Shown here: positions 945 through 28,966 of the stretch, in pieces
Position numbering within the stretch: the stretch's first letter is position 1
How the letters are laid out: each line of letters starts with the position of its first letter
Translations under genes and position numbers: made by a program
From: a virus
Taxonomy: Duplodnaviria > Caudoviricetes
Strand: one strand, 5' to 3'
Virus record (IMG/VR): IMGVR_UViG_3300049194_000050
Coordinates: 1 to 33,721 of that record
DNA: 33,721 bases
Notes under the pieces: generated by a model
What the model was told of the DNA's origin: nothing
The model's database searches: none
Seen by the model: the letters and a program-made list of their open reading frames with translations, nothing else

Positions 945-976
945 ATATACAATTTCTTACAAGGATGATAGAAATT

Positions 977-1126
977 ATGACATTAATTAAAGGGAAAAAA
1001 GCTAGTACACCTAAAGGATTTAAACAAAACATAAAGACTGAAAGAAAAAAAGGTAAGAAACTAGATCAGTCTGTTGCTATAGCATATTCAGAAGCCCGTA
1101 GAGGAAAAAAATCTAAGAAGAAATAA
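977..1126 (+). CDS. small Lys-rich phage protein (not in ORF track)
   Basis: Manual translation MTLIKGKKASTPKGFKQNIKTERKKGKKLDQSVAIAYSEARRGKKSKKK; AAGGA upstream. Confidence 0.7.
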   Translation: MTLIKGKKASTPKGFKQNIKTERKKGKKLDQSVAIAYSEARRGKKSKKK

Positions 1127-1133
1127 ATTCTTC

Positions 1134-1826
1134 TTAGACAAAGTAAAATCCTGATACGTATATTTCACTGCTATTAGATAATGCACCTAATTGTATAGCT
1201 GCACGTGCGCCGTTATCTACAGATTCATATAAAACTAACTTTGTATCATTAATTACTATCTGTCCTGAAACTTGAACAGCACTAGCACCTAAATTTAAAT
1301 TAGCATAGCTTGTTACGAAATTAGGAACCTGATTGCTTACATTAGCAGATGTAAAAGGTAATCCAGATATTTGTATATTTCCAGAACCACCACCTATCGT
1401 AATAGCAGATAATGTGATTGTTACATGAAAATTAACTAAATTTTCAATCTTTACATACCTACCAACTTGTGCCGCATAAGTAATAGAATCAGGATCAGCA
1501 ACAGACCCTGTAATAATAGGAGTAAATGTATTTGTTGTTACAACGGAATCTACATATTGCTTTGTAGCTGCACCTAATGCTGCGACAGGATCTGCATTTA
1601 ATATCAAATATCCTGTCATTGTATCGCCAGCTAGATTTACTTTTGAATTTAGATCAGCTACTAAATCAGTAACTTGGTTTTGTGGTATTTCAATATTTGT
1701 TTCAAATAAATCTAATACTTGCTGTAGATTTTCTTTGCTTGTAACTCCTGTTTGTACAACCGCAAAAAAATCGGTTAATGCGGCAGCAGAAACAGCAGGT
1801 AAAGCGCTTATTTTAACTTTAGCCAT
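1134..1826 (-). CDS. tail fibre / receptor-binding protein
   Basis: GDTMTGYL...AATKQYVD fibre motif; C-terminal GRYVKIENLV...ISGLPF beta domain; SD TAAGGTGAGG. Confidence 0.75.
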   Translation of the reverse strand: MAKVKISALPAVSAAALTDFFAVVQTGVTSKENLQQVLDLFETNIEIPQNQVTDLVADLNSKVNLAGDTMTGYLILNADPVAALGAATKQYVDSVVTTNTFTPIITGSVADPDSITYAAQVGRYVKIENLVNFHVTITLSAITIGGGSGNIQISGLPFTSANVSNQVPNFVTSYANLNLGASAVQVSGQIVINDTKLVLYESVDNGARAAIQLGALSNSSEIYVSGFYFV

Positions 1827-1842
1827 ATAACCTCACCTTACT

Positions 1843-1866
1843 AAAAAAAGGGGCCACGTAGGCCCC
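1843..1866 (-). terminator. intrinsic terminator
   Basis: GGGGCC-TACGT-GGCCCC followed by T7 on minus strand. Confidence 0.85.
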
Positions 1867-1875
1867 ATAGGGTAG

Positions 1876-2868
1876 TTAAACTGGATTAATAGCGATCCAA
1901 TAAAGACTAGTATTAGCGCCTGGATCAGCAGAAAAAGTAATAGTTAATGTATCACCACTTGGAACTGCTTTAGTTACTGCCACGGAATTTGTAGAAGTCA
2001 CAATATTAGCCACTACAAAATCAGCTGGATCTAAACCAGTTGCAGTAAAAGCATGAGAAGTTCCCCCGCCTGCCCATGTAGCAGTTAATGCACTTTTTAA
2101 TTTAATTGCTGCACGCGCTGCTGTAGCATCAGCTGAACTTGTTAAACCAGCTCCATAGGCTGATACCGTAACGCTGCCCGCTGAAATATCTAATGTACGA
2201 TCAGCATCACCAGTTGTGACAGTTAAAGTACGATCTGCTGTTAAATTGCTTCCTGGGGCGATAATAAGATCATGGGTAGCATTTGTATCCAGAATATGTA
2301 ATCCAGTATTTCCTACTGTTACAGATCCAAATACAGCATTACTAGCAGCACCTAAACCTAAGTTTGTTGCAGATGTTGCCGCATTTGCTACATCACTTAG
2401 ATTATTAGCAGCTTCAAGAAATAAACCAGATCCGCCAGAGGAAACATTAATGATAGTAATATCATCAACACCAACCGCAGCTGGAAGTGGTTCTATAACA
2501 ACGTGCATTGAACCACCAAGGACAGTACCAGCATTTGCAGAAAAGAATTGTCCACCTTTCATCTGTTCAATTGACTGAAAATCATATGAACGTTTTAACT
2601 GCCAAGGTGTGCCCGTATCGCCTGGTTCAACAACAATATAAATACCATTTTGATATCCAGATGTTTGACTTATTAATGCGACACGATCACCTTCTTCTGC
2701 TGCTACGCTATCAATAGTTAAAGCACCAGCAGTTGCTTTTGTTAAGGTAGCACCAACACCATTATTGCTAGGGCCATTATAATAGCTACCAGCAAGATTA
2801 GATCCTTGAACTAAACGAACTGAAGTAAGTTGTTGTTGAAGATAAGTTTGAGTACGAGATACGGTCAT
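1876..2868 (-). CDS. virion appendage / fibre protein
   Basis: GDRVALISQTSGYQNGIY...LKRSYDF motif and NNLSDVANAATSATNLGLG repeat typical of phage fibres. Confidence 0.7.
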   Translation of the reverse strand: MTVSRTQTYLQQQLTSVRLVQGSNLAGSYYNGPSNNGVGATLTKATAGALTIDSVAAEEGDRVALISQTSGYQNGIYIVVEPGDTGTPWQLKRSYDFQSIEQMKGGQFFSANAGTVLGGSMHVVIEPLPAAVGVDDITIINVSSGGSGLFLEAANNLSDVANAATSATNLGLGAASNAVFGSVTVGNTGLHILDTNATHDLIIAPGSNLTADRTLTVTTGDADRTLDISAGSVTVSAYGAGLTSSADATAARAAIKLKSALTATWAGGGTSHAFTATGLDPADFVVANIVTSTNSVAVTKAVPSGDTLTITFSADPGANTSLYWIAINPV

Positions 2869-2870
2869 AT

Positions 2871-2908
2871 TTAACGCTCCATGTTAATAAAATTAAATCC
2901 ATTTAATT
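2871..2908 (-). promoter_or_regulatory. two tandem ANGGA-loop hairpins (CsrA/RsmA-type sites)
   Basis: AATTAAA-TGGA-TTTAATT and TTAAC-ATGGAGC-GTTAA just upstream of ATG 2868. Confidence 0.7.
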
Positions 2909-2956
2909 AATTCGATAGTGATTCAAAATTTTAATGGCATAGTCTTTCTCCTTAAA

Positions 2957-5278: not shown

Positions 5279-5296
5279 ATAGTTATCCTTAACTAT
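5279..5296 (-). promoter_or_regulatory. ANGGA-loop hairpin over RBS (CsrA-type)
   Basis: ATAGTTA-AGGA-TAACTAT-A-ATG. Confidence 0.7.
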
Positions 5297-5430
5297 GGTC
5301 TATCCATATAAGCTTCTGCATCTCTATCGGTATATGTAATTAAATCTCTATCGGTATAACTATGATCTGGAGGGACTGGAGTCGATCCTTGGAAAAAGTT
5401 ATATACCGTTATGGGAATTGATCCAAACAT
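5293..5430 (-). CDS. small protein with YxDR repeats (not in ORF track)
   Basis: MFGSIPITVYNFFQGSTPVPPDHSYTDRDLITYTDRDAEAYMDRP; starts immediately after upstream stop. Confidence 0.6.
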   Translation of the reverse strand: MFGSIPITVYNFFQGSTPVPPDHSYTDRDLITYTDRDAEAYMDRP

Positions 5431-5730
5431 TTAGCTTCCCCATCTTAATTGGGCGGCTGCAATAGTCGTCCCTGAACTATTAATCATGATTGAATGGATT
5501 GGATGCCAAAACCCTGCCACTATATTTGGCAATGTTTCTGTTGTCCCATCCCATTTTACAAAAGATAAATTTCCAGCAGTTCCAACATAAATCCATCTTG
5601 CAAATTCTGGATATCCATATGCAACATCAAAAGTAACTGCTCCCGTTCTTACAATTCCAGCTAATTCTCTAACAGGACCTGTAAAGTTATAAGGATCTAA
5701 TCTAGGGATATCAATTGTATGTAAAGCCAT
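5431..5730 (-). CDS. small virion (spike-base-like) protein
   Basis: ARWIYVGTAGNLSFVKWDG...NIVAGFWHPI...INSSGTT pattern seen in podovirus tail regions. Confidence 0.6.
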   Translation of the reverse strand: MALHTIDIPRLDPYNFTGPVRELAGIVRTGAVTFDVAYGYPEFARWIYVGTAGNLSFVKWDGTTETLPNIVAGFWHPIHSIMINSSGTTIAAAQLRWGS

Positions 5731-5739
5731 TCCTTGGCT
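5725..5739 (-). promoter_or_regulatory. ANGGA-loop hairpin overlapping start codon
   Basis: AGCCA-AGGAA-TGGCT, ATG 5730 at loop/stem junction. Confidence 0.6.
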
Positions 5740-7564: not shown

Positions 7565-7578
7565 TCACTTCCTTGTGA
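7565..7578 (-). promoter_or_regulatory. ANGGA-loop hairpin over RBS
   Basis: TCAC-AAGGAA-GTGA. Confidence 0.65.
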
Positions 7579-10553: not shown

Positions 10554-10571
10554 CATTTCATCCTTGAAATG
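10554..10571 (-). promoter_or_regulatory. ANGGA-loop hairpin over RBS
   Basis: CATTTCA-AGGA-TGAAATG-CA-ATG. Confidence 0.7.
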
Positions 10572-13977: not shown

Positions 13978-15189
13978 CTAAGACAAAACTTTTACTGCAT
14001 ATTGGTTATGCCATTTAAATCCGCATAATAAGTCAATACGCATGTAGTTTTGATAGGCTTGTATATCACCAATTTGTGTAACAGCTAATGACAATCCAGT
14101 TTCTGGATCTACTGCTACATCTGCATATGGAACTTGTAGCTTATAGAGAGGAGGACAAACAATATCGATAGCACGTGAAGGATAAGCTACGTTTACGTTA
14201 TAGCTTTGGATCATCGTTACTACAGCATCATTTGGAATTGGATTGCTGACATTACGATTTGGATTTGCAGTATCACTGATAATTTCAGGTTCTACAACAA
14301 TAGTTACATTCCCTGAACCATCAGATGATGCAGCTTGTTGAATAACAAATTGCATGTTTTGACCGGTAGCTTTACGTCCAACAGGATTAACAGATTGAAC
14401 ACCAGCAATTGAAATTAAGTCACCTGGTAAAAAGTAATCTGTAATATTAATCGTTGCACCATTTAATGCAATCGTATTACCAGAAGATACAGCACCATTT
14501 ACTAACAAGGCATCTGATTGGTGTGAAGTTGGTCCCGCACCAGCAACATGACGAACTATATTTTGAGATTGGAAAATATCAAAATATGATAAGTGACCAA
14601 TTGCAGATTGACGAGCGATTTCTTCATTAAATACTGGTGTAAAGTTATTTAATAAAGAACTTTTTAATGAGCTACCATCTCGCACCGTGGTTGACATATA
14701 AGCATCCGATGCGATATTCACGCCTTGTTCTAATAATTTAGCGCCGGCTAAATCCACGGTTTGGAAACTATTAATTGGGGTTCCAGCGGTCCCGGTAAAG
14801 AAATTAAGATCAAGTTCTGCAGCAGAATAGATATCTTTTTCCATCTGCGTAATGATTTCTTGAATTGCTGGTTGAATAAACAGACGACTAAAATCTTCAA
14901 TACGTAAAGATAAGTCTTGTACTGTGTATGCAATCAATGCGTGATATTGATGTGCAACAGTAATATTTTCTACTGTTTCAATGATACTTTGTGGTGTAGC
15001 AACAGAACCATCGCCAACAATATAATGATTCTGACGACGGACTTGTAAAGTATCGCCAATTTTATAACCTGAAGAAGTAAAATCATCCTGATAAATACGT
15101 GAAGCAGTCATAATTGCAGGACAGTTATTTGCAAACATTGCTAAAGCAGTATTACTTACTAGCGATGTAGTAATAAATTGATTAGACAT
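13978..15189 (-). CDS. major capsid protein (P22 coat family)
   Basis: MSNQFITT, KIGDTLQVRR, FIQPAIQ, RIDLLCG motifs; 403 aa after scaffold. Confidence 0.92.
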   Translation of the reverse strand: MSNQFITTSLVSNTALAMFANNCPAIMTASRIYQDDFTSSGYKIGDTLQVRRQNHYIVGDGSVATPQSIIETVENITVAHQYHALIAYTVQDLSLRIEDFSRLFIQPAIQEIITQMEKDIYSAAELDLNFFTGTAGTPINSFQTVDLAGAKLLEQGVNIASDAYMSTTVRDGSSLKSSLLNNFTPVFNEEIARQSAIGHLSYFDIFQSQNIVRHVAGAGPTSHQSDALLVNGAVSSGNTIALNGATINITDYFLPGDLISIAGVQSVNPVGRKATGQNMQFVIQQAASSDGSGNVTIVVEPEIISDTANPNRNVSNPIPNDAVVTMIQSYNVNVAYPSRAIDIVCPPLYKLQVPYADVAVDPETGLSLAVTQIGDIQAYQNYMRIDLLCGFKWHNQYAVKVLS

Positions 15190-15201: not shown

Positions 15202-15219
15202 CCGTTAATCCTTTAACGG
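15202..15219 (-). promoter_or_regulatory. ANGGA-loop hairpin partly pairing the coat SD
   Basis: CCGTTAA-AGGA-TTAACGG(AG), second ACGGA in 3' arm. Confidence 0.7.
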
Positions 15220-15242: not shown

Positions 15243-16019
15243 TTATTTCCAGGTACCAGCCTTCATCCGCGAACGAATATCGCTTGCGGTTGCCCTTTGA
15301 GAGACCGCGCTATGAGAAGTCTGTGGATTTCCTTTGACTGAATTCATTATCTTAGAATTACTGGGGTTAGAAGATGCCTTAGTGTCCCCATTAGCCAAAG
15401 CAAACCCAAGTTTCATTACTTCTTGAGCTTGGTCGAATGGGTGAAGTTGTGAAATACGTCTAAGTTCTTCCTTGTTCTTACCTAATTTATACAGAACATC
15501 CGCACGCATATGCCGAGGTATAAGTAACGACGCATCCCGCATCGCATTTGTAAAAGGCACATCCTGGCCTTTTACTACTTCGTCAAAGTCTTCGTATTTA
15601 TCAATTCCATTATCAAGGTCATTTTGCAGATCCTGGTAATGTTGTTGGACACGAACCATTTGTTCAGCACTTTTCGCCTTTTGTTCCTGCTCTTCCCGAT
15701 GCCGTAACGCAAGGCTAACCGCACGTTGTATTCGCTCATCTTCAGTAGATGGCATAGATGAATTTTCATTCATCGGAGGTGAGTAGCTTTCTTGTTGATT
15801 CCCAAGTTTTGCATACAAGTCTTGCATTTGATCTTGTAATGCACGAATTTCTTTACGGTGCCGCTTTTCTTGTCGCCCTAAACGCTCCTTGGCAACTAAC
15901 GGCAAATCATCCTTGGGCGCTTCTTCACCTGAATTATCAGGATCAGAACCTTGAGAATCTACGCCTAAACTTCCCATTACCTCTTCTGTACTAGGTGAAC
16001 TTTGAACTTCGTCTTCCAT
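15243..16019 (-). CDS. scaffolding protein
   Basis: Acidic N-terminus, coiled coil, KYEDFDEVV and DVLYKLGKN motifs; ATG 16019 has GGAG SD. Confidence 0.8.
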   Translation of the reverse strand: MEDEVQSSPSTEEVMGSLGVDSQGSDPDNSGEEAPKDDLPLVAKERLGRQEKRHRKEIRALQDQMQDLYAKLGNQQESYSPPMNENSSMPSTEDERIQRAVSLALRHREEQEQKAKSAEQMVRVQQHYQDLQNDLDNGIDKYEDFDEVVKGQDVPFTNAMRDASLLIPRHMRADVLYKLGKNKEELRRISQLHPFDQAQEVMKLGFALANGDTKASSNPSNSKIMNSVKGNPQTSHSAVSQRATASDIRSRMKAGTWK

Positions 16020-16252
16020 AACAACTCCACATGGCATCTTATGCCCCAGAATTAAGGGTTTTCTGTGACCCCCGCAAATGATCCTTTTGCGTCTAATAAA
16101 TTATCTTCTTTTTTTAAATATTTTCATCACTACTAATAGTGATTCTTATTTTATTTTGATATATTATGTGGATTCACGGATGAAAGAAGATCGTTTGTGA
16201 CTCGTTTGTAATTGGCCTATATTAATCCTTTTATATAGGCCGCTCTTTTTAA

Positions 16253-18382
16253 TTATATTTGTTGATTAAAATGCTTATGAAGATCAGCTAAAGTCCTGGT
16301 TATTTCACTTGTATAATCCATATTTGTTTTTCTTATATCCATTACTTTATCTATTTTATCCATTTGCATTCTATCTTGGAGTTCTTTTGCTTTTAAAAGC
16401 AATTGCGCTTTTTCCAATTCATGTTGTTGTTCACGAATATTTAATTCACGATGTCGTTCTTGTAATTGTTGCATCTTATCTTGCATCTCCATTTGCATCA
16501 TTTGTTCTTGAGGAGAAGGAGGTTGTGGAGGAAGTTCTTTGCCTTCTTCCTTAGCGATAATTTGAGGAGGCACCATTGTTTTAAGACGTTCAACAATTTG
16601 AGGACCATTCTCAATATCAAGATTTTCAGCCCACAAATCAGCCACAAGCGAAAATACTTGAGGGTTTCCAGAAGCCGCAATAGTCTGTTGGAAAAACTCA
16701 AGAGCAATTTCTTTCTGCACTGCAAAAGATGGTCCAGTATCAATTTCAATATCGTAATCACCATAATCCATTGCATTTTCAATATTTCCATTTTCATCTT
16801 TATCATTTAAAGATATCGTTTGTGTTTTACCACTTTGTTTAGTAATAACCATATCCCTTTGTTCATTATAAACAAATGGTAATAAATCTAATACTACTCT
16901 TCCCCCTTGTTCAATTGCCTGATTTGCATTATCAAAAAATACATAGGCACTCATTGAACCTTCGGTTTTTCTTTCACGGCGTGCTTTACCAGATATATCT
17001 ATCCCTTGCATATTTTCCGATTGTGAAAATCCTAATATTACACGTAAATCCTGCGTTAAACGTTGATGATTAACTAGTAAAGTTTGTGGTACTTCTGAAG
17101 GCGGTTGTTTAACTGGCATCATCCCTGTTTTAGGATCAGGTTGTGCAACTAAAACACCATTCTGCACTTCAGGGTTACGCCACATTTGTTCATAACCTTT
17201 TATATTATCTGGCGTAGCAAGCCATTGCTCACGTCGTCTATTTTTTATTTCAGTCATTATTTCAGCAAAATTATAATTAATAGCTTTCTGAACATCTTTA
17301 GAATCAGAAATAAAACTTTTAGTATACTGCCTTCCTTCTATTAATGATGAATCACCATCTACAAATATTAATGGTAAATATTTTGATGGCCATTCTGAAA
17401 AGTCTAATACCTGATTCTTAAGTAAGCGATAGTGCATTATCTTAAAATCTTGGCTTTGACGTTCACCAATAATTTCTGGTATCTCATTACGAATAATCCG
17501 TTTAACTTCTTCTGAAGACTGAGTAGCTATTTCTTCTTGAAATTTTATTTTATCTTTAATTTTTTCCCATTCTTCTTCGGTAACGCTTTCTCCATTACTT
17601 AGAAGATAAACTATTATTGGTTTCCATTCTTTTTTGTAATAATCACAAATTACTATTGCATCATTTCTGTGCCATTGAAGATCTAATAAACTTCTTACAT
17701 CAACATAAGATTCAGGATTAATTGCATAGGGATAAGTTGCATAGAACTCTTGTTTACTCATAGGGATCTTACGGCTACAAAAGTTTCCATCCCCTTTATG
17801 TGGTTTAACCGCAGAGGGATCAAATGTAGTTTGAGTGACATCTGGTATTAATCGGTAAGATATTATTTTTTTAAAACTTCGTGGGTTCTCATATTCAATA
17901 CCAATTTCAAATGCTCCATATCCCATTGTTAATGCAGATTTGAAAGCATGCTGATAAATTAAATCATTTTGTGATTGATAAGAAATCGTTCTTACCATAT
18001 CAGCTCGAAGTGTTATTTGATCTTGAGAGGCTTTTCCATTAAGAGATCTAACCATTAAGTCAGGTTTATTTTGTCTTTGTTCAGCCAATATTTTCTTAAC
18101 TTCTGGATAAATCATATTGGCAGTCATTGCAGGTTTGAAAAGACGATTAAACTCTGATCTTTCTACAGAAGTCCATTGATCTTTCACAAGGAACTGAACA
18201 TCATCTTTACCACGGGTTATATTTTCACTGAAAAATCCTTGCCATCTTCCATCATCATCTAAAGCATTATCTAATACTGTTAATTCATCTATCCCGGCTT
18301 CTTCAAGCATAGAAATACGTTTTTCTTCCATTTCATTGATTTTATCCAAAGAAATGCTTGCTTCTTCCTGTAAACGTTCCAT
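16253..18382 (-). CDS. portal protein (P22-like)
   Basis: 709 aa; DQW, GYGAF, YLPLIFVDG, YDIEIDTGPSF motifs; Q-rich C-terminal barrel. Confidence 0.92.
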   Translation of the reverse strand: MERLQEEASISLDKINEMEEKRISMLEEAGIDELTVLDNALDDDGRWQGFFSENITRGKDDVQFLVKDQWTSVERSEFNRLFKPAMTANMIYPEVKKILAEQRQNKPDLMVRSLNGKASQDQITLRADMVRTISYQSQNDLIYQHAFKSALTMGYGAFEIGIEYENPRSFKKIISYRLIPDVTQTTFDPSAVKPHKGDGNFCSRKIPMSKQEFYATYPYAINPESYVDVRSLLDLQWHRNDAIVICDYYKKEWKPIIVYLLSNGESVTEEEWEKIKDKIKFQEEIATQSSEEVKRIIRNEIPEIIGERQSQDFKIMHYRLLKNQVLDFSEWPSKYLPLIFVDGDSSLIEGRQYTKSFISDSKDVQKAINYNFAEIMTEIKNRRREQWLATPDNIKGYEQMWRNPEVQNGVLVAQPDPKTGMMPVKQPPSEVPQTLLVNHQRLTQDLRVILGFSQSENMQGIDISGKARRERKTEGSMSAYVFFDNANQAIEQGGRVVLDLLPFVYNEQRDMVITKQSGKTQTISLNDKDENGNIENAMDYGDYDIEIDTGPSFAVQKEIALEFFQQTIAASGNPQVFSLVADLWAENLDIENGPQIVERLKTMVPPQIIAKEEGKELPPQPPSPQEQMMQMEMQDKMQQLQERHRELNIREQQHELEKAQLLLKAKELQDRMQMDKIDKVMDIRKTNMDYTSEITRTLADLHKHFNQQI

Positions 18383-18384
18383 TT

Positions 18385-18405
18385 TAAATCCCTTCCTTGG
18401 GTTTA
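18385..18405 (-). promoter_or_regulatory. ANGGA-loop hairpin over portal RBS
   Basis: TAAACCC-AAGGAA-GGGATTTA. Confidence 0.65.
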
Positions 18406-19660: not shown

Positions 19661-19680
19661 GATACTTTTCCTTAAGTTAG

Positions 19681-19923: not shown

Positions 19924-19926
19924 AAA

Positions 19927-21480: not shown

Positions 21481-21653
21481 TTAATAGCTTCTTTTATATA
21501 AGGATATTTTTTATAATTTTGTTTTAAATTTTCTACTGTAGTATATCTAACTCTACATTTAATACATTCTCGTCTTCTAATAATGTCATCGTTTTTATCT
21601 TGCCTAGTTTGAACAACTTTACTATCAGGATAACCACAATTTTTGCAGATCAC
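21477..21653 (-). CDS. NrdR N-terminal-like zinc-ribbon protein (not in ORF track)
   Basis: GTG start; MICKNCGYPDSKVVQTR...IIRRRECIKCRVRYTTVE; stop overlaps terL ATG. Confidence 0.75.
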   Translation of the reverse strand: MICKNCGYPDSKVVQTRQDKNDDIIRRRECIKCRVRYTTVENLKQNYKKYPYIKEAIK

Positions 21654-21654
21654 A

Positions 21655-21897
21655 TTATTTCCTTATCCCTCTTAGGGTTTTATGAGCTACTACGTTTTTA
21701 CCAAGAATTTTATTAGCTTTTGCATCAATCTTTTCTTTAGAAGATTCTGACAAATTACCTTTATTAACTTGCTGTGTAGCACGTGCTTTTGCATTAGCAG
21801 CATGTGCTTTGTCAGGCATTGGATATTTCCTTTCCCCAGGCAGTCCAAAAGATGACTTTGGTAATCCTTTACGACGTTTAGTATTTAGGATACTCAT
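21655..21897 (-). CDS. small basic phage protein (DUF6582-like)
   Basis: RRKGLPKSSFGLPGERKYPMPDKAHAANAKARA. Confidence 0.7.
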   Translation of the reverse strand: MSILNTKRRKGLPKSSFGLPGERKYPMPDKAHAANAKARATQQVNKGNLSESSKEKIDAKANKILGKNVVAHKTLRGIRK

Positions 21898-22061
21898 TTA
21901 TTCTGTCCTTCAATTATTTCTTTAATTGAAACAGTTGATACATGAAAAAACATAGCTATTAAATTTATTATTGGATTACCTTTAACTACAGATAACAAGT
22001 TCAAAGCTTTATCTATCAAATCTAATCCTTCTTCAAGCGCGGCTATTTCTTTCTTATCCAT
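21894..22061 (-). CDS. small hypothetical protein (not in ORF track)
   Basis: MDKKEIAALEEGLDLIDKALNLLSVVKGNPIINLIAMFF...; ATGA overlap. Confidence 0.55.
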   Translation of the reverse strand: MDKKEIAALEEGLDLIDKALNLLSVVKGNPIINLIAMFFHVSTVSIKEIIEGQNK

Positions 22062-22092
22062 TAGATAATCCCTATCCGTTATTAATAAAATA

Positions 22093-22206
22093 TTATTTCT
22101 TAACCTTTTTTTCGTATTTCTTCATCATTTTCTTATCTTTTTTGTTGTCCATTTTTTCTGATTTTTTAATCATTTTCTTCACTTCCTTTTTGGGTACGTA
22201 TTTCAT
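22093..22206 (-). CDS. Lys/Met-rich peptide (not in ORF track)
   Basis: MKYVPKKEVKKMIKKSEKMDNKKDKKMMKKYEKKVKK; AGGAAAG upstream. Confidence 0.45.
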   Translation of the reverse strand: MKYVPKKEVKKMIKKSEKMDNKKDKKMMKKYEKKVKK

Positions 22207-22606
22207 CTTTTCTTTCCTTAGCTATGAGTTTAAGAATTTCTGAGTGTTGTTCTTTAATATCTGCAACAATTCCAGAATCTGGTCCAAAATCTTCTTTAAC
22301 ACCCTTCTCTAAAATCCATGAAATAGCCTGAAAACTTCCGTTATTACGTAAAGTTTGAATACATTCTTGTACTGTTTCTGATCTTTTTTCATGATAATCA
22401 ACAAAAAGTTGTGCATAGATGGTATTTTCGCCAGCTTCGAAGTCCTTCTCTCCTCTTCGTAACCAGTTAGATAAATTCTGTTGTGATATACGTGCTTTAG
22501 CGGCAACTTGAGTTTGTATTAATAGTTGAGGAACTGCTTCAATTATTCTGTCATAAACTTCAGCAGTTAATGAGGTGTGAAATCCTACGGGATTCTTTCT
22601 AAACAT
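22166..22606 (-). CDS. terS: terminase small subunit (HTH)
   Basis: HTH QTQVAAKARISQQNLSNWLRRG, AISWILEK; upstream of terL; RBS hairpin GCTA-TGGA-TAGC at 22612-22623. Confidence 0.7.
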   Translation of the reverse strand: MFRKNPVGFHTSLTAEVYDRIIEAVPQLLIQTQVAAKARISQQNLSNWLRRGEKDFEAGENTIYAQLFVDYHEKRSETVQECIQTLRNNGSFQAISWILEKGVKEDFGPDSGIVADIKEQHSEILKLIAKERKDEIRTQKGSEEND

Positions 22607-22700
22607 AATATGCTATCCATAGCGGTTTTGTTCATTTAAGAATCATAAATCATTATTAGTAATAATCAAATACTTTTTAATATTTTTATTTCAAATACTA

Positions 22701-22730
22701 TTGCGCTATACCACTATAGTGGTATAAACT
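22701..22730 (+). promoter_or_regulatory. sigma70-like promoter with perfect 20-bp palindromic operator
   Basis: TTGCGC...TGGTATAAA with TATACCACTATAGTGGTATA (22707-22726). Confidence 0.6.
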
Positions 22731-22763
22731 ATATTTGTAGTTAACAATCATTAGGAGATAATT

Positions 22764-22943
22764 ATGAAAACAGCAATGACAGCAGATCAATTCAAAAGAT
22801 TAGTAATAGCACAAAATCATCCAGCTAACATCAATGAAGATATTATAAGTTATGTAAATTTCTTCAAAGATAATAAAAAAGTCGAAAATCACATAAAAAA
22901 ATATGAGCATAAAGCTACTGTTTATTCAATGACTAATAAGTAA
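22764..22943 (+). CDS. hypothetical protein (not in ORF track)
   Basis: SD TAGGAG; MKTAMTADQFKRLV..., 59 aa. Confidence 0.65.
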   Translation: MKTAMTADQFKRLVIAQNHPANINEDIISYVNFFKDNKKVENHIKKYEHKATVYSMTNK

Positions 22944-22968
22944 TTAATTAAACTAAAAGGATATTAAC

Positions 22969-23172
22969 ATGACCAGTTCATACATAATAATTAGCGACAT
23001 AATAAATAACTGTAATAATGATTCTTTGGATGAAATATTATCTGAAATTACTTATGAAAAGCTAAATAGACTATTATTCCACATCCAATCAAAAATGATG
23101 GACATAGAAAATACCAGAAAAAACTTTTATCAAAATTGTCCTAAATTTGGAGAAATATATGGAAATTATTAG
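22969..23172 (+). CDS. hypothetical protein
   Basis: SD AAGGA; 67 aa. Confidence 0.6.
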   Translation: MTSSYIIISDIINNCNNDSLDEILSEITYEKLNRLLFHIQSKMMDIENTRKNFYQNCPKFGEIYGNY

Positions 23173-23321
23173 CTTTCAAACTCGGTTAATGAAACACATA
23201 AAATCATTAATGGTTAATCTAAAAAAAGAAGATCTATTAAGTATAAGACATTATGTTAATGAAAAAATAAAAAATGCCGATTGTGAGCATACAAACCAGG
23301 AAAATAAAAAATAATATTATG

Positions 23322-23360
23322 GAAATCAGTGTTCAACCTACCCAGAACGCTGATTTCTTT
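23322..23360 (+). terminator. long hairpin, possible terminator or processing site
   Basis: GAAATCAGTGTTC-N10-GAACGCTGATTTC-TTT. Confidence 0.45.
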
Positions 23361-23380
23361 ATTAAAAAGGATATATTAAA

Positions 23381-23563
23381 ATGAAAAAATCTAGTCATAA
23401 AACCTCTATATATATGCCTCCACTTTCAAAAGAAGAATTAAAATTTCTTAGTAAGTTATATCAAGAAAACCCTAGCATGGTTATAAGAAGGCTTATATCT
23501 GAAAAATTTATACAAGAAAAAAGAAATATAAATGCAAAATTACTAATGGGTCCAAAAGATTAA
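23381..23563 (+). CDS. ribbon-helix-helix-like regulator
   Basis: KTSIYM strand, SKEELKFLSK helix, NPSMVIRRLI helix. Confidence 0.6.
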   Translation: MKKSSHKTSIYMPPLSKEELKFLSKLYQENPSMVIRRLISEKFIQEKRNINAKLLMGPKD

Positions 23564-23988
23564 AAATCTCCTTTTAGCATCATGTAAGATAGATTAGTGG
23601 ATCTCTCCCCAACTTGGGATGCCCACTTACTATCTAACATTTCTTCGGCTGCTCCTGCATAATCAAAGTTAGCCAGAAAAATTAACATTTTCTTAAATGA
23701 CTGGAATTTTTTGTATCCCATAAAACACATGTCCACCAAAACGATCTGTCTTACTTCATTAAGAGATCTAAACCAAGAATAATCTTCTGTTAACTTGTTG
23801 TAAAAATATTGGATATCATCTTCAAGTTGTTTGCTTATCCAACTATCTGGCAATCCTCTAGATATAAGGTTATACCCGACTCCAATAGTTAAATTCCCTT
23901 CCGTATCTAAGTAAGGGAAATTCCTATATCCTTCATGTTCAATTAAAAGATTCTTCAAAGCATTAAGATTCGTTAAAGAAAGCGACAT
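23560..23988 (-). CDS. endolysin, phage lysozyme (GH24 / T4-like)
   Basis: HEGYRNFPYLDTEGNLTIGVG catalytic E-D-T; AAEEMLDSKWASQVGERS. Confidence 0.92.
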   Translation of the reverse strand: MSLSLTNLNALKNLLIEHEGYRNFPYLDTEGNLTIGVGYNLISRGLPDSWISKQLEDDIQYFYNKLTEDYSWFRSLNEVRQIVLVDMCFMGYKKFQSFKKMLIFLANFDYAGAAEEMLDSKWASQVGERSTNLSYMMLKGDF

Positions 23989-24109
23989 CCTTAATATCCT
24001 GGATAATTGTGTTAATAGCTATTGTATCACACCATACATTGCACTCTTCACAAACGTAATAATCATGCATTATATATACTTTACTTTTACAACATCTTGA
24101 CACAACCAT
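23963..24109 (-). CDS. small Cys-rich protein (not in ORF track)
   Basis: MVVSRCCKSKVYIMHDYYVCEECNVWCD... Confidence 0.55.
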   Translation of the reverse strand: MVVSRCCKSKVYIMHDYYVCEECNVWCDTIAINTIIQDIKDVAFFNES

Positions 24110-24118
24110 TTGAAAATT

Positions 24119-24676
24119 TTATCCTGAAAGGTTAACTTTTGTTGGCTTTAAATTATAATAAGATTCCAGTATTTTTATTCCTTCTTCATAACCAAAGGCA
24201 AAAGATGCATAATATCCTTTATTTTTAAGTTTATTTATCCATTCTTCCTGAGATAACCAATGAGAAGTATTTCTTTCATATTCAGAATATTTTCTATCCT
24301 GCTTCATTTCTATATAACATCCAAAATACCCTCCCCTAGCTTCCGGTATATGAAGATCGGGAAATCCGGGAGATAATCCCATCATCTTAAGAATTGCACC
24401 GTTTCTTATTGATCTTTCTCCTTCATTTGGATGGCTAACAATATCAAATCCCATTTTTTTTGCCCATGTAACAACTCTAATTTGATGTTGTCTTTCAGTT
24501 AAAAAATTTAACTTTCTTTTAGGAATTATCTTAGTTTTAGATACCTTTTTTGGAGGAATTTTTCCATTTAGCTTTGCAGGGATATCATTATATTTCATCA
24601 AATTCGTCCTTGAATGTTGATTATTGTCACCATAAAGATTTTTCATTTCTCGTAGAATTTTATCAAAGTGATTCAT
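24119..24676 (-). CDS. VRR-NUC (PD-(D/E)xK) nuclease
   Basis: HPNEG, GLSPGFPDL, YIEMK, SQEEWI; RBS hairpin ATAGAT-AAGGAC-ATCTAT at 24675-24692. Confidence 0.85.
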   Translation of the reverse strand: MNHFDKILREMKNLYGDNNQHSRTNLMKYNDIPAKLNGKIPPKKVSKTKIIPKRKLNFLTERQHQIRVVTWAKKMGFDIVSHPNEGERSIRNGAILKMMGLSPGFPDLHIPEARGGYFGCYIEMKQDRKYSEYERNTSHWLSQEEWINKLKNKGYYASFAFGYEEGIKILESYYNLKPTKVNLSG

Positions 24677-24694
24677 AGATGTCCTTATCTATTA

Positions 24695-24980
24695 CTTAAT
24701 GTTCTATATAGAACATATGGGTAAAAATTTAAAAAAACAATTCACTTTAAATCTTTTTTTATCTTTATGTGTTTTTGAAGTTAGAGATATTTGGATTTAT
24801 TTATATGGTATTTTATGTTTTTAATAAGATATTAAAATTTTCTGTGGATAAGTATTTTTAATATAAAAAACTTATCAATGATTAGCATAAGATTAGTATA
24901 AAGTTGATTTTTTTTTGATCATTAATTGGAAATAAAAATAGTACTCCAACCGGGTGATTATTACGGTAAGAAAACTATAA
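24695..24980. other. candidate replication origin
   Basis: Very AT-rich non-coding gap downstream of rep; perfect DnaA box TTATCCACA (24843-24851, minus); 18-bp palindrome 24699-24716. Confidence 0.6.
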
Positions 24981-24983
24981 TTA

Positions 24984-25925
24984 TTACGATGGAGGTCTTG
25001 TCTTACGTTTAACTCGTAATTTAGCGAAACATTCATCTAACCATTTATTATGGTCAACGCTTTTGTAAATGTTATTTTCTTCTTTCTTGTCATTAAGAAA
25101 TTCTTTACCACGGTCATATCCTGGCATTTCTTTTTTAAGAAGATCTTTTTCTTCCTTTGAAAGATATGAAGGATTAGCTTTCATCAAATCCCTCATAGAC
25201 TTCATACATTTCTTAACAGTCTTTTTGGTAGCACGTTCAAAGGCTAATCGTTGTCTATTCTTTGCCTCTAGTTGATCTCGACATTCATCTCGTTGAACTA
25301 GATTTTGTTTAAGATTAAGATCTTCTTTAGTAAATCCTATATCAAGAAATAGTTTTTCATTAACCATGATTACTGAAGGACGGCTTCTATATGTTCCATT
25401 TGGTTGAAGTATTTTTCTTTCTTCAATTCTAATATAACCATATTTCTCAAATAATCTTATTGCCTCACGTACTTGCCATAAAGAAATAGGATTATTAGGA
25501 TCATTATTGGTTTTTTCATGAATAAAATTAATACCAAAATTTTTAAATGTTTGAGTTTTTGGATCTGATATACCAACTTCCATTCTAACTAGATTGGTAT
25601 AATGGAGAATTACTTGTCCTACTCTAAGAGTAACAGATGAACGTATTTCGGAACGACGTTTTCTAAATCCTGATTTTGGATTTTTCTTTTTCTGATTGTA
25701 ATACATTTGTCCAATTTCATATTGTAGAGGATATAAGAAACTGTTAATTAAACGTCTTTTAGATTCTTCTAAAGTGAAAGGACGACGCTTGCCAGAAAGT
25801 TTTTGTTGATAGAAAGATACAATCTTGCTATTCTGTTCTAGTATTGTGTTATATGGTCCACTTGTGTGAATGCATTCCCCGTCTAAAGGTATGTTCATAC
25901 AAGTGGGTATCCTACCCAAATTCAT
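24984..25925 (-). CDS. plasmid-type replication initiator (RepA-like, wHTH)
   Basis: RKRRSEIR...ILHYTNLVRMEVG, HTH-like QVREAIRLFEKYGYI, EKLFLDIG; leader hairpin TGGTTA-CGGAT-TAACCA at 25942-25958. Confidence 0.6.
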   Translation of the reverse strand: MNLGRIPTCMNIPLDGECIHTSGPYNTILEQNSKIVSFYQQKLSGKRRPFTLEESKRRLINSFLYPLQYEIGQMYYNQKKKNPKSGFRKRRSEIRSSVTLRVGQVILHYTNLVRMEVGISDPKTQTFKNFGINFIHEKTNNDPNNPISLWQVREAIRLFEKYGYIRIEERKILQPNGTYRSRPSVIMVNEKLFLDIGFTKEDLNLKQNLVQRDECRDQLEAKNRQRLAFERATKKTVKKCMKSMRDLMKANPSYLSKEEKDLLKKEMPGYDRGKEFLNDKKEENNIYKSVDHNKWLDECFAKLRVKRKTRPPS

Positions 25926-25970
25926 GTCTTTCTTCCTCTAATGGTTAATCCGTAACCAAATTAATAAAAA

Positions 25971-26282
25971 CTACTTCGAATTAATATACTTATAAGATGA
26001 CCTATTGTCACTATAAAATGGACTTCTTAAATCAAAATATTTTACGCTTTCTATATCAAAATAATTCTTTTCTAAATAATCTGTAACATCTTTGAACGAA
26101 TCACATTTTTTTATTTTTTTCCAATGATTTAATCTATTACTGAATAACTTTAAAAAATTAAATTTACTTTTACAAAATACCAAATAAAAAGTATTTCCTT
26201 CCTCTTCTATTACATGAACTTTAATAATCATAATGTTCCCCAAAATAATGCCGTATGTATGCCATGTCCTACGGCGAGACAT
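25971..26282 (-). CDS. hypothetical protein
   Basis: ORF track; true start may be the internal MIIKV. Confidence 0.55.
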   Translation of the reverse strand: MSRRRTWHTYGIILGNIMIIKVHVIEEEGNTFYLVFCKSKFNFLKLFSNRLNHWKKIKKCDSFKDVTDYLEKNYFDIESVKYFDLRSPFYSDNRSSYKYINSK

Positions 26283-26310
26283 GATTTTACCTAAGATGAG
26301 GTCTTCGGCA

Positions 26311-26390
26311 TGGGCGGCAATAGGACGGATTTAACCGCCATTGGGGTGAACCCAACTTATCAACCTATCAATGGGGAGGTTGCTATTGCC
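26311..26390 (-). ncRNA. tRNA-like RNA E0 (8-bp acceptor, 5-bp T-stem)
   Basis: GGCAATAG/CTATTGCC-GCCCA; arms CAACCT/AGGTTG, GTTGGG-TTCAC-CCCAAT, GGCGG-TTAAAT-CCGTC. Confidence 0.65.
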
Positions 26391-26402
26391 ATAAATAAGT
26401 TA

Positions 26403-26717
26403 TCAATTCATTTTTACGTTCTTTTCTGGCTTAAATTCAGTCAATATATCACATTGTATAAATTTACATATCTTAATTACAATACCATGCTTATTAGATA
26501 TCATTTTAGCTATTTCCATAATATTATTTTTCTCATTTTTATTTATTGCTATTAATGGTTTTTCGATTGGCGGAAAAGATTCTAAATTAATACTAGAAAT
26601 TAATCCTTCATTACCATTTTCATCCAAAGTAATGGCAGCCAAAATTTCTGTAATTTTTGATATAATCCTTTCTTCATTTTTGAAAAAATTTTTCTTAACT
26701 TTTTTATAATTTTTCAT
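26403..26717 (-). CDS. hypothetical protein
   Basis: AITLDENGNEGLI motif; 104 aa. Confidence 0.6.
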   Translation of the reverse strand: MKNYKKVKKNFFKNEERIISKITEILAAITLDENGNEGLISSINLESFPPIEKPLIAINKNEKNNIMEIAKMISNKHGIVIKICKFIQCDILTEFKPEKNVKMN

Positions 26718-26730
26718 TGAATATTTATAC

Positions 26731-27291
26731 CTATGTTGTTAAATTAATTAACTGTTCAATTAAATTTTTACATTGTTCTTCAACATATTCTTTTGTTCTA
26801 ATTTCATAACGAAGTTTGTTGTCATCCGAATTTATATATTCTTTATATCCAGGGTTTACAAGTTCCATTTTTTCTTCAAATTCTTTCAAAATTTTAATTG
26901 TAAATTCTATTCCCTTTAATACTTTTTCATTATCTGAAAAATATTTTTTTGCTGTTTCATTATCAAGAAAATCACCTGCATGTCCACAATCAAATCCTAA
27001 CCATTTATCATTACAAACTTTCTCTCCAAAAATAACTTCAGAAATATGATTTTCTCCAAAAAAAGTAATTCCCCAATGAACATCAAAATCTGGATATTTC
27101 CCATCATAATTATTTATAGGATGCCCATTTGGAATGGCGACATATCCACATCTAAATCCATAATTGTTAAATGTTATGAGATAATCATAACCTTTATATT
27201 GCCCTCCTCCCTCTACAACAACACCATTAAGTCCTATCGGTAATATTTCTTTATCCCCCTTTAAATCTAATATTTTTGGTATGCAACTCAT
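26731..27291 (-). CDS. conserved phage hypothetical protein
   Basis: GFRCGYV, DVHWGITF, WLGFDCGHAGD; start ATG 27291 with AAGGAG SD (longer call overlaps tRNA-like gene). Confidence 0.7.
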   Translation of the reverse strand: MSCIPKILDLKGDKEILPIGLNGVVVEGGGQYKGYDYLITFNNYGFRCGYVAIPNGHPINNYDGKYPDFDVHWGITFFGENHISEVIFGEKVCNDKWLGFDCGHAGDFLDNETAKKYFSDNEKVLKGIEFTIKILKEFEEKMELVNPGYKEYINSDDNKLRYEIRTKEYVEEQCKNLIEQLINLTT

Positions 27292-27320
27292 ACTACTTAA
27301 ATCTCCTTTATGTTTGTAAA

Positions 27321-27448
27321 TGGCGGCAATCTTCAGGATTCGAACCTGCGAGCTCCCATGCGTGTACACGCATGGCTCATAAACAGCTTAATCTAATATA
27401 AATTAGAGTACATATTCGCTGCATTTACACCACAATGCCGAGATTGCC
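27321..27448 (-). ncRNA. tRNA-like RNA E1 (128 nt)
   Basis: GGCAATCT/AGATTGCC-G-CCA; D-arm GCATT/AATGC; T-arm CAGG-TTCGAAT-CCTG; two long extra arms. Confidence 0.75.
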
Positions 27449-27455
27449 ATAAATT

Positions 27456-27525
27456 TGGGGCAGCTAGACCGGATTTGCACCAGTACTCGGTGATAAATCA
27501 CCTTAATCTATACTTTAGGACTGCC
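27456..27525 (-). ncRNA. tRNA-like RNA E2 (70 nt)
   Basis: GGCAG/CTGCC-CCA; GGTGA-TTTA-TCACC; T-arm ACTGG-TGCAAAT-CCGGT; no clear D-stem. Confidence 0.55.
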
Positions 27526-27534
27526 ATAACTAAT

Positions 27535-27605
27535 TTTAGAGGGATGGGCTCGAACCACCATTAGCAGAGTCAAAGTCTACTGTCCTACCATTAGACGACC
27601 TCTAA
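27535..27605 (-). tRNA. tRNA-Gln(UUG)
   Basis: TTAGAGG/CCTCTAA acceptor, GTCTAATGGTAGGAC D-arm, GTAGA-CT TTG AC-TCTGC, GGTGG-TTCGAGC-CCATC; CCA not encoded. Confidence 0.9.
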
Positions 27606-27609
27606 ATAT

Positions 27610-27696
27610 TGGGTGGCAATCGGCCAGATTGATTACTGGCATTTCTGCATTTGCTTTCAGCAGTGACACAGTGTCCTTGTTTAGACGACGATTGCC
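27610..27696 (-). ncRNA. tRNA-like RNA E4 (87 nt)
   Basis: GGCAATCG/CGATTGCC-ACCCA; D-arm GTCTAAACAAGGAC; extended anticodon arm; GCCAG-TAATCAAT-CTGGC. Confidence 0.7.
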
Positions 27697-27706
27697 ATAA
27701 ATTCTT

Positions 27707-27831
27707 AGACACACTCCCGGAATCGAACCGGGTATGCTGCAATTTGACCACCCTACTTGATAAGCTAGCGTTTTCTTTCATGGTATGCAGCTTAAAGTTT
27801 TCAGCGTTTCACCATGAACGCCCAGTGTGTC
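27707..27831 (-). ncRNA. tRNA-like RNA E5 (125 nt)
   Basis: GACACACT/AGTGTGTC; D-arm GCGTT-CATGGTGA-AACGC; long arm closed by GCTGCA/TGCAGC; CCCGG-TTCGATT-CCGGG. Confidence 0.75.
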
Positions 27832-27982
27832 ATTAATGAATGACAAAAATCTTACTTGTATTGAGAATTTATGAGCTATTCTCTGTTAATCCAATTAACT
27901 CCATTCATAAAAAGCATCAGTACTTTTATAAAATCCTATTTTTTGTACGCAAATCTTTTGCTACTGACACCATAAAAATTTA

Positions 27983-28019
27983 TTGATAAATTACCAATAA
28001 TTGGTACAATGGTACCATA
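27983..28019 (+). promoter_or_regulatory. sigma70-like promoter with operator
   Basis: TTGATA-N16-TACAAT (extended TG), overlapped by TGGTACAATGGTACCATA. Confidence 0.65.
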
Positions 28020-28042
28020 AATTTTACAAAGGGCAAGATGTA

Positions 28043-28228
28043 ATGACAAAAAAAAATAGGAATATAAAAAAAGAGGAAACAAAAAGTTTGCATGTGAGAT
28101 TGCCAGAAGATCTTTGGATATTTGTTAGGTCGGTAGCTTATGATAATAAAATAAGCATGAATGAAGTTATATTAACAATTATTAAAAAATCGAAAGAAAA
28201 AAAAGAAAATTATATTGACTATTTATAA
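28043..28228 (+). CDS. Arc-like ribbon-helix-helix regulator
   Basis: SLHVRLPEDLWIFVRSVAYDNKISMNEVI; ATG 28043 lies downstream of the promoter. Confidence 0.8.
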   Translation: MTKKNRNIKKEETKSLHVRLPEDLWIFVRSVAYDNKISMNEVILTIIKKSKEKKENYIDYL

Positions 28229-28251
28229 TATTATGGTACTATGGGACCATA
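28215..28251 (+). promoter_or_regulatory. sigma70-like promoter with the same operator
   Basis: TTGACT-N16-TACTAT, overlapped by TGGTACTATGGGACCATA. Confidence 0.65.
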
Positions 28252-28276
28252 TACTTAAAAAGGAGATAAATGAAAA

Positions 28277-28459
28277 ATGTCAGAAAAAGAATTTAAACTA
28301 ACCATAACATTGTCAAAGGAGAATTTAAAAAAACTTAAATATTTATCCTTGTTAAAGGACAAAAAACATCCAGATTTAGCAAGAGAAATAATTGAAAAAT
28401 TTGTACAAAGTAAAAAATCTTTTGAAGAGTTAGAAGGAATAGAAATTTTAGCAAAATAG
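28277..28459 (+). CDS. ribbon-helix-helix regulator
   Basis: KLTITLSKENLKKLKYLS...DLAREIIEKFV; SD AAGGAG. Confidence 0.7.
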   Translation: MSEKEFKLTITLSKENLKKLKYLSLLKDKKHPDLAREIIEKFVQSKKSFEELEGIEILAK

Positions 28460-28540
28460 GAATTTAAAATGTTTTCCTGGCTTATGCTTCAACATAAGCC
28501 ACGAATGTAGTAACAACCAATTATTAGAAGGATAATTGAT

Positions 28541-28966
28541 ATGAATAATATACATTTATTTAAAAATATTTCAACTACCAAGGATGGGGGTTGTATGTCA
28601 GTAAAATTAGAAAATGTTAGACAGTCTACCATAGATTTTTTAATAAAATTAATCAGAGAAAATGGTGAAAGATTTGATGAAAGAGAGACTTATAAATTAC
28701 TTTTAAAAGATCTTGATATATTAGATATAAAATTATTTTTAGGAAGAATATTAGATCCATTTGATTATGAATTTTATTCATCTAGCCAAACAAAATTAAA
28801 TGAAGCAATAAAAGATAATTATAAATACATGCAAGATTTAATTGATTTAAATTGTGAGGATGCATATCAAGAATACCATAATGATAAATTAGAAGATTAT
28901 AAAAATGGAATAGATTACTCTTATAAATATAATGGATGTTATGTATATTTAAGAGGAGAAGAATAA
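28541..28966 (+). CDS. hypothetical protein
   Basis: ORF track; alternative start 28595 behind hairpin CAACTACC-AAGGAT-GGGGGTTG. Confidence 0.65.
   Translation: MNNIHLFKNISTTKDGGCMSVKLENVRQSTIDFLIKLIRENGERFDERETYKLLLKDLDILDIKLFLGRILDPFDYEFYSSSQTKLNEAIKDNYKYMQDLIDLNCEDAYQEYHNDKLEDYKNGIDYSYKYNGCYVYLRGEE

Follow-up and report, generated by a model that had tools for sequence, protein, structure and literature searches.

Transcription is the level at which phage late genes are normally switched. T4 RegA/RegB act on phage genes post-transcriptionally, at translation starts, and the P22 scaffolding protein is reportedly autoregulated post-transcriptionally; these systems, however, rely on phage-encoded factors and on operators other than those considered here, namely RNA hairpins that present ANGGA in their loops at gene starts of a complete virus record, IMG/VR entry IMGVR_UViG_3300049194_000050 (33,721 nt, the whole stretch being called the window below). 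The hairpin set, which would share with these systems post-transcriptional control at starts, appears from comparative sequence analysis to work like a CsrA regulon. A preliminary description of the window had proposed such a CsrA/RsmA-type reading, which is now strongly supported by the loop consensus, the covarying stems, the placement at translation starts on the mRNA strand and the selectivity among genes.

The closest described systems are bacterial leaders repressed by CsrA, RsmA and RsmE. According to the accessible text of PMC7652899, their sites are ANGGAN hexaloops with a variable N on a short stem, on or beside the Shine-Dalgarno (SD) sequence and paired in a way that suits the dimer, with glgC exemplifying bridging from a hairpin to the SD, psl the clamping of a stem, and hcnA the hexaloop bound by RsmE; in vitro selection (SELEX) yielded the consensus RUACARGGAUGU, most selected stems being no longer than 4 bp and the C-G closing pair (CAxGGAUG) representing an affinity optimum rather than a strict requirement. 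The phage sites resemble these in loop, stem and placement, and partly in the pairing of sites, but they are predicted ones, they target genes for virions, packaging and replication, they are conserved among members of a phage family, and A-U/U-A pairs close most of them. A(N)GGA loops, often two per leader, also characterize the Legionella pneumophila CsrA-RsmX/Y/Z system in the available parts of PMC5338858 and PMC13227487, the former describing how RsmX/Y/Z sequester CsrA at the transmissive switch; sponge RNAs switch that regulon at the replicative-to-transmissive transition, and its targets are host genes. A further comparison is offered by phage-encoded CsrA homologs, for which the accessible text of PMC7366521 reports csrA in 30 of 2517 phages and that of PMC11879866 reports smaller plaques upon knock-down of PTXU04 gp28. 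In those cases a csrA gene is proposed to act on the host, whereas the present family has sites and no detectable csrA.

The window is a P22-like podophage, in which Pfam and PHROGs identify an ordered P22-type set of coat, portal, scaffold, head closure and ejection genes. These lie on the minus strand together with large and small terminase (terL, terS), lysozyme and VRR-NUC genes, and the plus strand carries Arc-like and Sak4-like genes. The G+C content is 22-42% in 1-kb windows, and no integrase family was matched among the 54 open reading frames (ORFs) by Pfam or PHROGs. Coat matches comprise 196 stretches in IMG/VR (the best 80 of them at 79-85% identity), 5 in bacterial bins and 208 in metagenomes, while the coat identity of the closest GenBank phages is just 26-29%. 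For comparison, 85 related loci were retrieved, along with 35 related virus records, 29 of which are at least 90% complete; whole-genome comparisons cover the window and 20 of these 35 (21 genomes). Most complete relatives measure 34-37 kb, and direct terminal repeats occur in many of them.

In most relatives, the coat leader reads CCATTTA-ANGGAY-TAAATGG-AG, and the stem covariation that the preliminary description proposed to check was found here: the stem changes in compensating fashion and the loop keeps A and GGA with N free. Across 65 aligned coat leaders, 88.6% of cells are paired and 23 double changes occur, values reached by none of 500 shuffles, and slid registers give 22-56%. A hairpin of at least 4 bp presenting ANGGA is found in 53 of 64 distinct related leaders. 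On a coat-gene tree limited to leaders with full-length coat matches (63 rows, with 25 of 59 inner branches poorly supported), the compensatory variants are scattered: G-C replaces A-U in the deep-branching window and L064, CCAATTA/TAATTGG appears in L020/L047 and separately in L075, CCATTAA/TTAATGG in L011, L057 and L081, and CCATTTG/CAAATGG in L083. In one clade of 14 members, the stem is mostly either a short CCA-ATGGAN-TGG or missing. A scan of the collection with four free A/T positions returned 70 matches, many of them records already in the comparison set; all 70 precede a coat start, both free pairs are complementary in every one (55 + 8 + 7), and the loop N is A in 30, C in 22 and T in 18, A and GGA being fixed by the search pattern. 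Sites picked by position have N as A in 11, C in 8 and T in 16 cases. G-U pairs also occur in stems, which fits RNA. The coat SD is the downstream GGAG (15203-15200), 10 nt before the ATG, with its first GG held in the 3' arm of the hairpin, so the conserved coat loop is not the SD. Of 70 distinct coat leaders, 39 carry another ANGGA hairpin 41-53 nt further upstream; other genes for the most part have a single hairpin together with an SD or an AUGGA.

Beyond the coat, ANGGA itself is over-represented in the window (309 versus 243.7 +/- 14.6 expected), as SD sequences would produce, and the null model therefore kept each ANGGA and the start region fixed while shuffling the rest. The predicted enrichment of loop-presented ANGGA held under this SD-preserving null, which used 54 start coordinates, 4 of them off by a few bases. 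The 30 late and replication leaders contain 10 hairpins of at least 4 bp versus 2.1 expected, 7 versus 0.72 at 5 bp or more and 6 versus 0.23 at 6 bp or more, none of which was reached in 2000 shuffles. The corresponding figures for the 24 other leaders are 2 versus 1.6 (not significant), 2 versus 0.6 and 2 versus 0.2 (p=0.02). A loose definition (any 4-9-nt loop, at least 5 bp) shows no excess, with 33 of 309 ANGGA against 51 of 540 control words, whereas stems of at least 7 bp do (11/309 against 4/540), so the signal is specific to the hexaloop register and to stem length. When all 6-nt loops closed by Watson-Crick stems in the 21 genomes were tallied by 256 patterns, A.GGA. ranked first at every threshold (158 versus 29.7; 90 versus 9.1 at 5 bp or more; 52 versus 2.8 at 6 bp or more), although homologous sites were counted once per genome, so that z-scores overstate independence. 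The x.CCT. patterns that rank next look like the same hairpins in reverse complement, and the T.GCT. excess comes mainly from one palindrome. By genome, the window has 10 such loops versus 2.05 expected and 19 of the 20 relatives have 3-12 versus 1.1-1.9. Six control phages (P22, PBR31, Vibrio 41E34.2, Shewanella X14, DSL-LC05 and a Manatee Spring phage) have 1-3 versus 0.6-1.3; each has one hairpin of at least 5 bp (6 versus 1.5 in total), a small excess, and two of these adjoin the 3' side of the coat stop codon.

The hairpin set is selective, marking late-operon entry points and replication genes. In the 21 genomes, hairpins precede coat in 18 of 20 leaders (1.2 under the SD-preserving null), terS in 13/19 (1.2), tail in 13/20 (1.1), ejection in 10/21 (1.4), the 5730 family in 10/21 (1.2), VRR-NUC in 9/21 (1.0), adaptor in 7/21, a helix-turn-helix (HTH) initiator in 5/10 (0.3) and portal in 4/21 (1.3). 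Two unrelated initiator types each carry a site, the HTH initiator and the RepA-like gene of the window and L104. An arm-swap null, with sites picked by position only and 2000 trials, was matched by none for distal coat, ejection, adaptor and the 2868 family and by one for scaffold; it was exceeded more weakly by the 19660 family (5/2000), tail (14/2000) and the 5730 family (21/2000). Compensating stems with a kept A and GGA and a free N were found for coat, scaffold, ejection and adaptor. The portal stem is near-invariant CCC/GGG (89-94% paired at pairs 2-3) with at least a few swaps, such as ACTCA/TGAGT and TTCAC/GTGAA. More broadly, hairpins are present in 52 of 66 related scaffold leaders (median 73 nt upstream) and 33 of 57 tail leaders, and those of at least 4 bp in 23 of 47 portal leaders. 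In 11 genomes, a family on the early strand that is only tentatively linked to window gene 28541-28966 has 12 sites in total, at two positions located about 45 and 5-14 nt upstream. In general, the hairpins belong to the mRNA strand and either cover the SD or start codon or pair with it, at a median of 11-24 nt from the start and about 70 nt for distal ones.

This selectivity runs counter to the phage-wide regulon initially envisaged: five conserved late genes (head closure, 10956, 8800, zinc ribbon and 13825) have no hairpin in 19-64 distinct leaders each. The first four start no more than 2 nt from, or overlap, the upstream stop in the window, and translational coupling could therefore carry control there. 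Among early genes, ANGGA occurs in all 20 leaders of the 29985 family and in 12 of 23 of the Arc-like family, with no hairpin in either. The scaffold leader (window 16040-16070, minus strand) is long and structured, and relatives conserve in it a CAGGG-N-CAGGCC-ACCG-GGTCTAGGG tract between the distal hairpin and the start, possibly a second regulatory element.

As to the binder, the loops match both the ANGGAN hexaloop and the SELEX loop consensus. The suggestion that a phage paralog of CsrA might lie beyond the window did not hold up, since PF02599 matched none of the 35 related virus records; in 38 records its only match was the bacterial bin G037. Pfam and PHROGs found no csrA among the 54 window ORFs, PHROGs none among 30 small phage proteins, and a custom profile built from 16 bacterial paralogs, which retrieves four held-out divergent paralogs and Bacillota CsrA at E 2e-19 to 4e-9, gave a best E of 3.2 over 30,176 reading frames taken from the window plus 125 loci. 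With no detectable phage csrA, a CsrA-family binder would come from the host, and the binder is thus probably host CsrA. An improbable alternative is that an unrelated phage RNA-binding protein, such as the scaffold or a 58-aa NrdR-like zinc ribbon, reads the hairpins as a translational operator that sets subunit ratios. The targets are indeed assembly genes, the P22 scaffold provides a reported precedent of post-transcriptional autoregulation, and all 21 genomes encode small proteins of unassigned role; but such a protein would have no need to follow the CsrA rule (A-N-GGA-N with a free N), early-strand and replication genes carry the hairpin too, and a 65-aa candidate encoded after the coat has no informative family in Atlas or PHROGs. 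The zinc ribbon itself (PF22811; window 21477-21653, minus strand) is a stand-alone protein encoded just upstream of terL, present in 21 of 21 genomes, and is a candidate late regulator.

It is quite improbable that structure alone is at work, with hairpins tuning ribosome access or mRNA stability and the SD-like loop being simply the SD in AU-rich leaders. In its favor, the terS, tail, ejection and 2868 loops coincide with the SD with N nearly always A, many stems are AU-only, and most leaders fold with energies that do not stand out (z -0.2 to -1.6 for 8 of the 9). Yet the loops of coat (both sites), scaffold, portal and rep are not the SD and are nevertheless kept while stems vary, early genes with the same SD have no hairpins, and the spacing of the two coat sites is tight.

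It is considered likely that ANGGAN-loop hairpins at selected virion, packaging and replication gene starts bind a host CsrA/RsmA dimer that represses translation until CsrA is titrated away. In this model, host CsrA would bind hairpin loops on late and replication mRNAs, and where a loop or stem covers the SD the bound protein would block 30S loading. Three geometries are predicted. In the hcnA type, the loop is the SD itself (terS, ejection, tail, 5277 and VRR-NUC). In the psl type, the loop would be a separate tether and the 3' arm would hide the SD (coat, portal and 28595), so that bound protein would clamp a marginal stem shut. In the glgC type, a distal hairpin, 41-53 nt (coat) or about 70 nt (scaffold) upstream, could let a dimer reach across to another GGA, located at the SD or in an AUGGA start. 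Relief would come with a rise in host sponge RNAs or an excess of late mRNA over free CsrA, which would subject virion assembly to a threshold or growth-phase gate; the binding, the host origin of the binder, its repressive sign and the release of repression are the parts that we infer. There is little probability that CsrA binds but activates or stabilizes late mRNA, or that late mRNA mainly serves as a sponge draining host CsrA. Several sites per transcript and distal coat and scaffold sites away from the SD would suit this idea, and CsrA activates gap and thi by refolding RNA in Legionella (available text of PMC5338858); most sites, however, overlap or pair with the SD or start codon, a repressive geometry, and there is no tandem array of GGA hairpins of the CsrB/RsmZ type, the sites being dispersed at 1-2 per leader and Rfam giving only one tRNA in the window. 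The asymmetric centre, the location of leader sites on the mRNA strand and the presence of G-U pairs led to the rejection of double-stranded DNA operators; RegB-like cleavage sites are rejected because RegB requires GGAG and only 18 of 158 family loops end in it. Promoter and terminator scans over 13500-28600 gave chance levels.

Several findings weigh against repression by host CsrA. Closing pairs are A-U/U-A in 122 of 158 hexaloops, the SELEX-type C-G accounting for only 27, and the 7-bp coat stem is longer than most selected stems. The portal, 13967 and terL sites do not surpass the arm-swap null, a hairpin of at least 4 bp is missing from 11 of 64 coat leaders, and the distal coat position of the window is an AAGGA predicted to be paired. 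Relative G018 lacks a genome-wide excess (1 versus 0.9), and the counts come from related genomes and so are not independent events. On the host side, neither the 203 genomes searched from a DotH-positive order (best coat 27%) nor 69 DotH-positive genomes (one unrelated terminase, 39%) yielded a close prophage, and five bacterial bins holding the phage (L081-L085) are labelled discordantly as Sulfuricurvum, Gammaproteobacteria, Planctomycetota, Bacillota and Buchnera. The phage-only contigs in these bins are probably binning errors.

Several weak hints point to a gammaproteobacterial host with a Dot/Icm system. The RepA-like protein has weak matches in 11 plasmid records, of which 9 are from Legionella and one each from Aquicella and Spongiibacter (25-33% identity, E 1e-5 to 3e-3), and it matches 1 of 300 sampled Gammaproteobacteria (G228, E 3e-8), which has both DotH and CsrA; a homolog search with the protein returned only itself, and no close prophage turned up in the order of G228 (1 genome). 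csrA is present in 32 of 35 tested DotH-positive candidate genomes. Resolvase, ParA, IS66, DnaB and a second RepA were uninformative, with IS66-matching genomes DotH-positive in 3 of 6 cases versus 71 of 300 overall. The 80 best metagenome contigs are all at most 37 kb, save one of 55 kb with two coat copies, so none is long enough for host flanks. Accessory genes of relatives (L113:5702-6328, L088:6200-6643, L117:2490-3110 and L098:1247-2659) encode two proteins resembling the RNA-polymerase alpha C-terminal domain, a sigma-70 region 4 protein and a class-3 lipase; the motif of the alpha-domain protein of one relative is presumably beta/gamma-proteobacterial. LME-1 is described as T7-like, and the accessible text on it mentions neither P22 nor CsrA.

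The preliminary suggestion of a Legionellales host with growth-phase gating of lysis is accordingly kept as a tentative one; such gating is plausible if the host is of that kind, since RsmX/Y/Z sequester CsrA in L. pneumophila. In its fullest form, a non-integrating podophage family of Dot/Icm-bearing, amoeba-dwelling Gammaproteobacteria, without its own regulator at this step, would wire its whole assembly program to host CsrA, staying quiet during host replication and making virions upon sponge-RNA sequestration at the transmissive switch, with lysis timed to exit from the eukaryotic cell. This full scenario is doubtful and, taken together, rather unlikely.

At the level of individual sites, all 17 hairpins listed in the preliminary description do place ANGGA within an inverted repeat, but 4 of them are not predicted to form in context. 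Folded in isolation, 14 of 17 adopt the hairpin (all but 2891-2908, 19664-19677 and 16173-16184); in 86-nt context, GGA is unpaired with probability of at least 0.75 in a closed loop at 13, the remaining values being 0.12 (2871-2887), 0.01 (2891-2908), 0.30 (7565-7578) and 0.00 (16173-16184). The last, on the plus strand, was dropped because it is antisense to late genes and buried in a terminator-like stem (16174-16200). Three sites were absent from that list (647-664 and 22063-22077, minus strand; 28927-28944, plus strand), and the leader of 29107, said to be unstructured, has a perfect 7-bp hairpin, ATTTCAT-AAGGAG-ATGAAAT. Leaders related to 2871..2908 have AU-only stems in 28 of 36 cases. 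The 16214..16241 hairpin may be an additional site within the long leader of the scaffold gene, or else a stem resembling a terminator.

Table 1. Hairpins and associated genes in the window, with the support for each (unpaired, predicted probability that GGA is unpaired in context).
Feature	Position	Strand	Support or remark
7-bp hairpin CTTAATA-TGGA-TATTAAG, 92-aa gene	647..664	-	ATG start within ANGGA; 0.98 unpaired
Weak interrupted hairpin over SD/start of 53-aa basic gene	951..976	+	1/9 related leaders
Two weak AU-rich ATGGA hairpins, leader of 330-aa head-decoration-like gene	2871..2908	-	0.12 and 0.01 unpaired; not predicted in context
Hairpin ATAGTT-AAGGAT-AACTAT on SD of 474-aa gene	5279..5296	-	Inverted repeat and context folding
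Hairpin AGCCA-AGGAA-TGGCT over start codon of 99-aa tail gene	5725..5739	-	SD (AGGAG) just upstream
Tail-protein leader hairpin TCAC-AAGGAA-GTGA	7565..7578	-	Weak in window (0.30); relatives keep TCACA-AGGAA-TGTGA
Ejection-protein leader hairpin CATTTC-AAGGAT-GAAATG	10554..10571	-	Loop is the SD; C-G closing pair; phrog_598
Coat gene, P22-like	13978..15189	-	PF11651 E 1.8e-27; phrog_283
Coat-leader hairpin CCGTTA-AAGGAT-TAACGG	15202..15219	-	7 bp if loop A-U pairs
Head scaffolding protein gene	15243..16037	-	phrog_8865 E 8e-12; likely start ATG at 16019
Scaffold distal ANGGA hairpin	16073..16091	-	67 nt before likely start ATG 16019; not the SD
9-bp hairpin, AAGGA in 10-nt loop, just past portal stop	16214..16241	-	Region folding z -2.85
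Portal gene, P22-like	16253..18382	-	PF16510 E 7.5e-101
Portal-leader hairpin CCC-AAGGAA-GGG	18385..18405	-	3' arm GGG(G) is the likely SD; start codon reads ATGGA
Weak hairpin on SD of conserved 83-aa gene	19664..19677	-	Only 6/39 related leaders carry one
AGGGA-loop hairpin on SD of 55-aa gene	22063..22077	-	Hairpin scan and context folding
terS-leader hairpin GCT-ATGGAT-AGC	22612..22623	-	Loop at SD position; 0.97 unpaired; terS is phrog_4102
VRR-NUC leader hairpin ATAGAT-AAGGAC-ATCTAT	24675..24692	-	Context folding
RepA-like gene, putative replication role	24984..25925	-	Weakly matches hypothetical proteins encoded on plasmids of Legionella, Aquicella and Spongiibacter
RepA-like gene leader hairpin TGGTTA-CGGAT-TAACCA	25942..25958	-	Upstream of separate GAGG SD
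Hairpin CC-AAGGAT-GG, extended stem over GGGGG SD of early-strand gene	28572..28593	+	Likely start ATG 28595
ATGGAT-loop hairpin about 34 nt before ATG 28966	28927..28944	+	0.65 unpaired
7-bp hairpin on SD of Sak4-like gene	29086..29105	+	Competing fold predicted, 0.02 unpaired; only 1/20 in family

Several additional features were observed in this phage family. In about a dozen relatives (for example L090:~3615, L097:~13481 and L102:~1785), the tail gene of the 5730 family has its stop codon inside a perfect palindrome of 16 nt, GAAGTTAGCTAACTTC, which is kept only partly in the window (~5420-5440, minus strand); it is possibly a DNA operator or an RNA hairpin. In L104:10879-12980 (G015), the HTH initiator is replaced by ParA, a small partner and the RepA-like gene, an arrangement that suggests a plasmid-like state or phage-plasmid; in the window, where the RepA-like gene is present, Pfam and PHROGs gave no ParA match among the 54 ORFs. 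The early region contains two copies of a stretch of some 55 nt, gatgaaaatggtgtaagaaaaaaaattaatcacaaagaagttat (31268-31340 and 32050-32125, plus strand), and small Tad2-like proteins (Thoeris anti-defence, PF11195) are encoded at 32727-32921 (plus) and 18814-18984 (minus), with similar ones in relatives. The tRNA recognized by Rfam and ARAGORN is a tRNA-Gln (27534-27606), and further tRNA-like stretches, called by neither, lie around it (27320-27800, minus strand).

A literature search that covered few subscription journals and no supplements found no published case of CsrA sites in phage late mRNAs, and none are described in the accessible portions of PMC9697503, PMC8545117 or the phage csrA papers PMC7366521 and PMC11879866. 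The role of CsrA in phage life cycles is called previously untested in the available text of PMC11879866, and the present leaders, which are short enough for standard assays in E. coli or Pseudomonas laboratory strains, offer a direct test of how CsrA enters such cycles. If the proposed mechanism is true, the host of a large uncultured family, represented by the 196 IMG/VR stretches, would be narrowed to csrA-bearing bacteria, and CsrA-type operators on coat, scaffold, portal, terminase and tail mRNAs of phages without their own csrA would constitute a host-sensing translational checkpoint on virion assembly.

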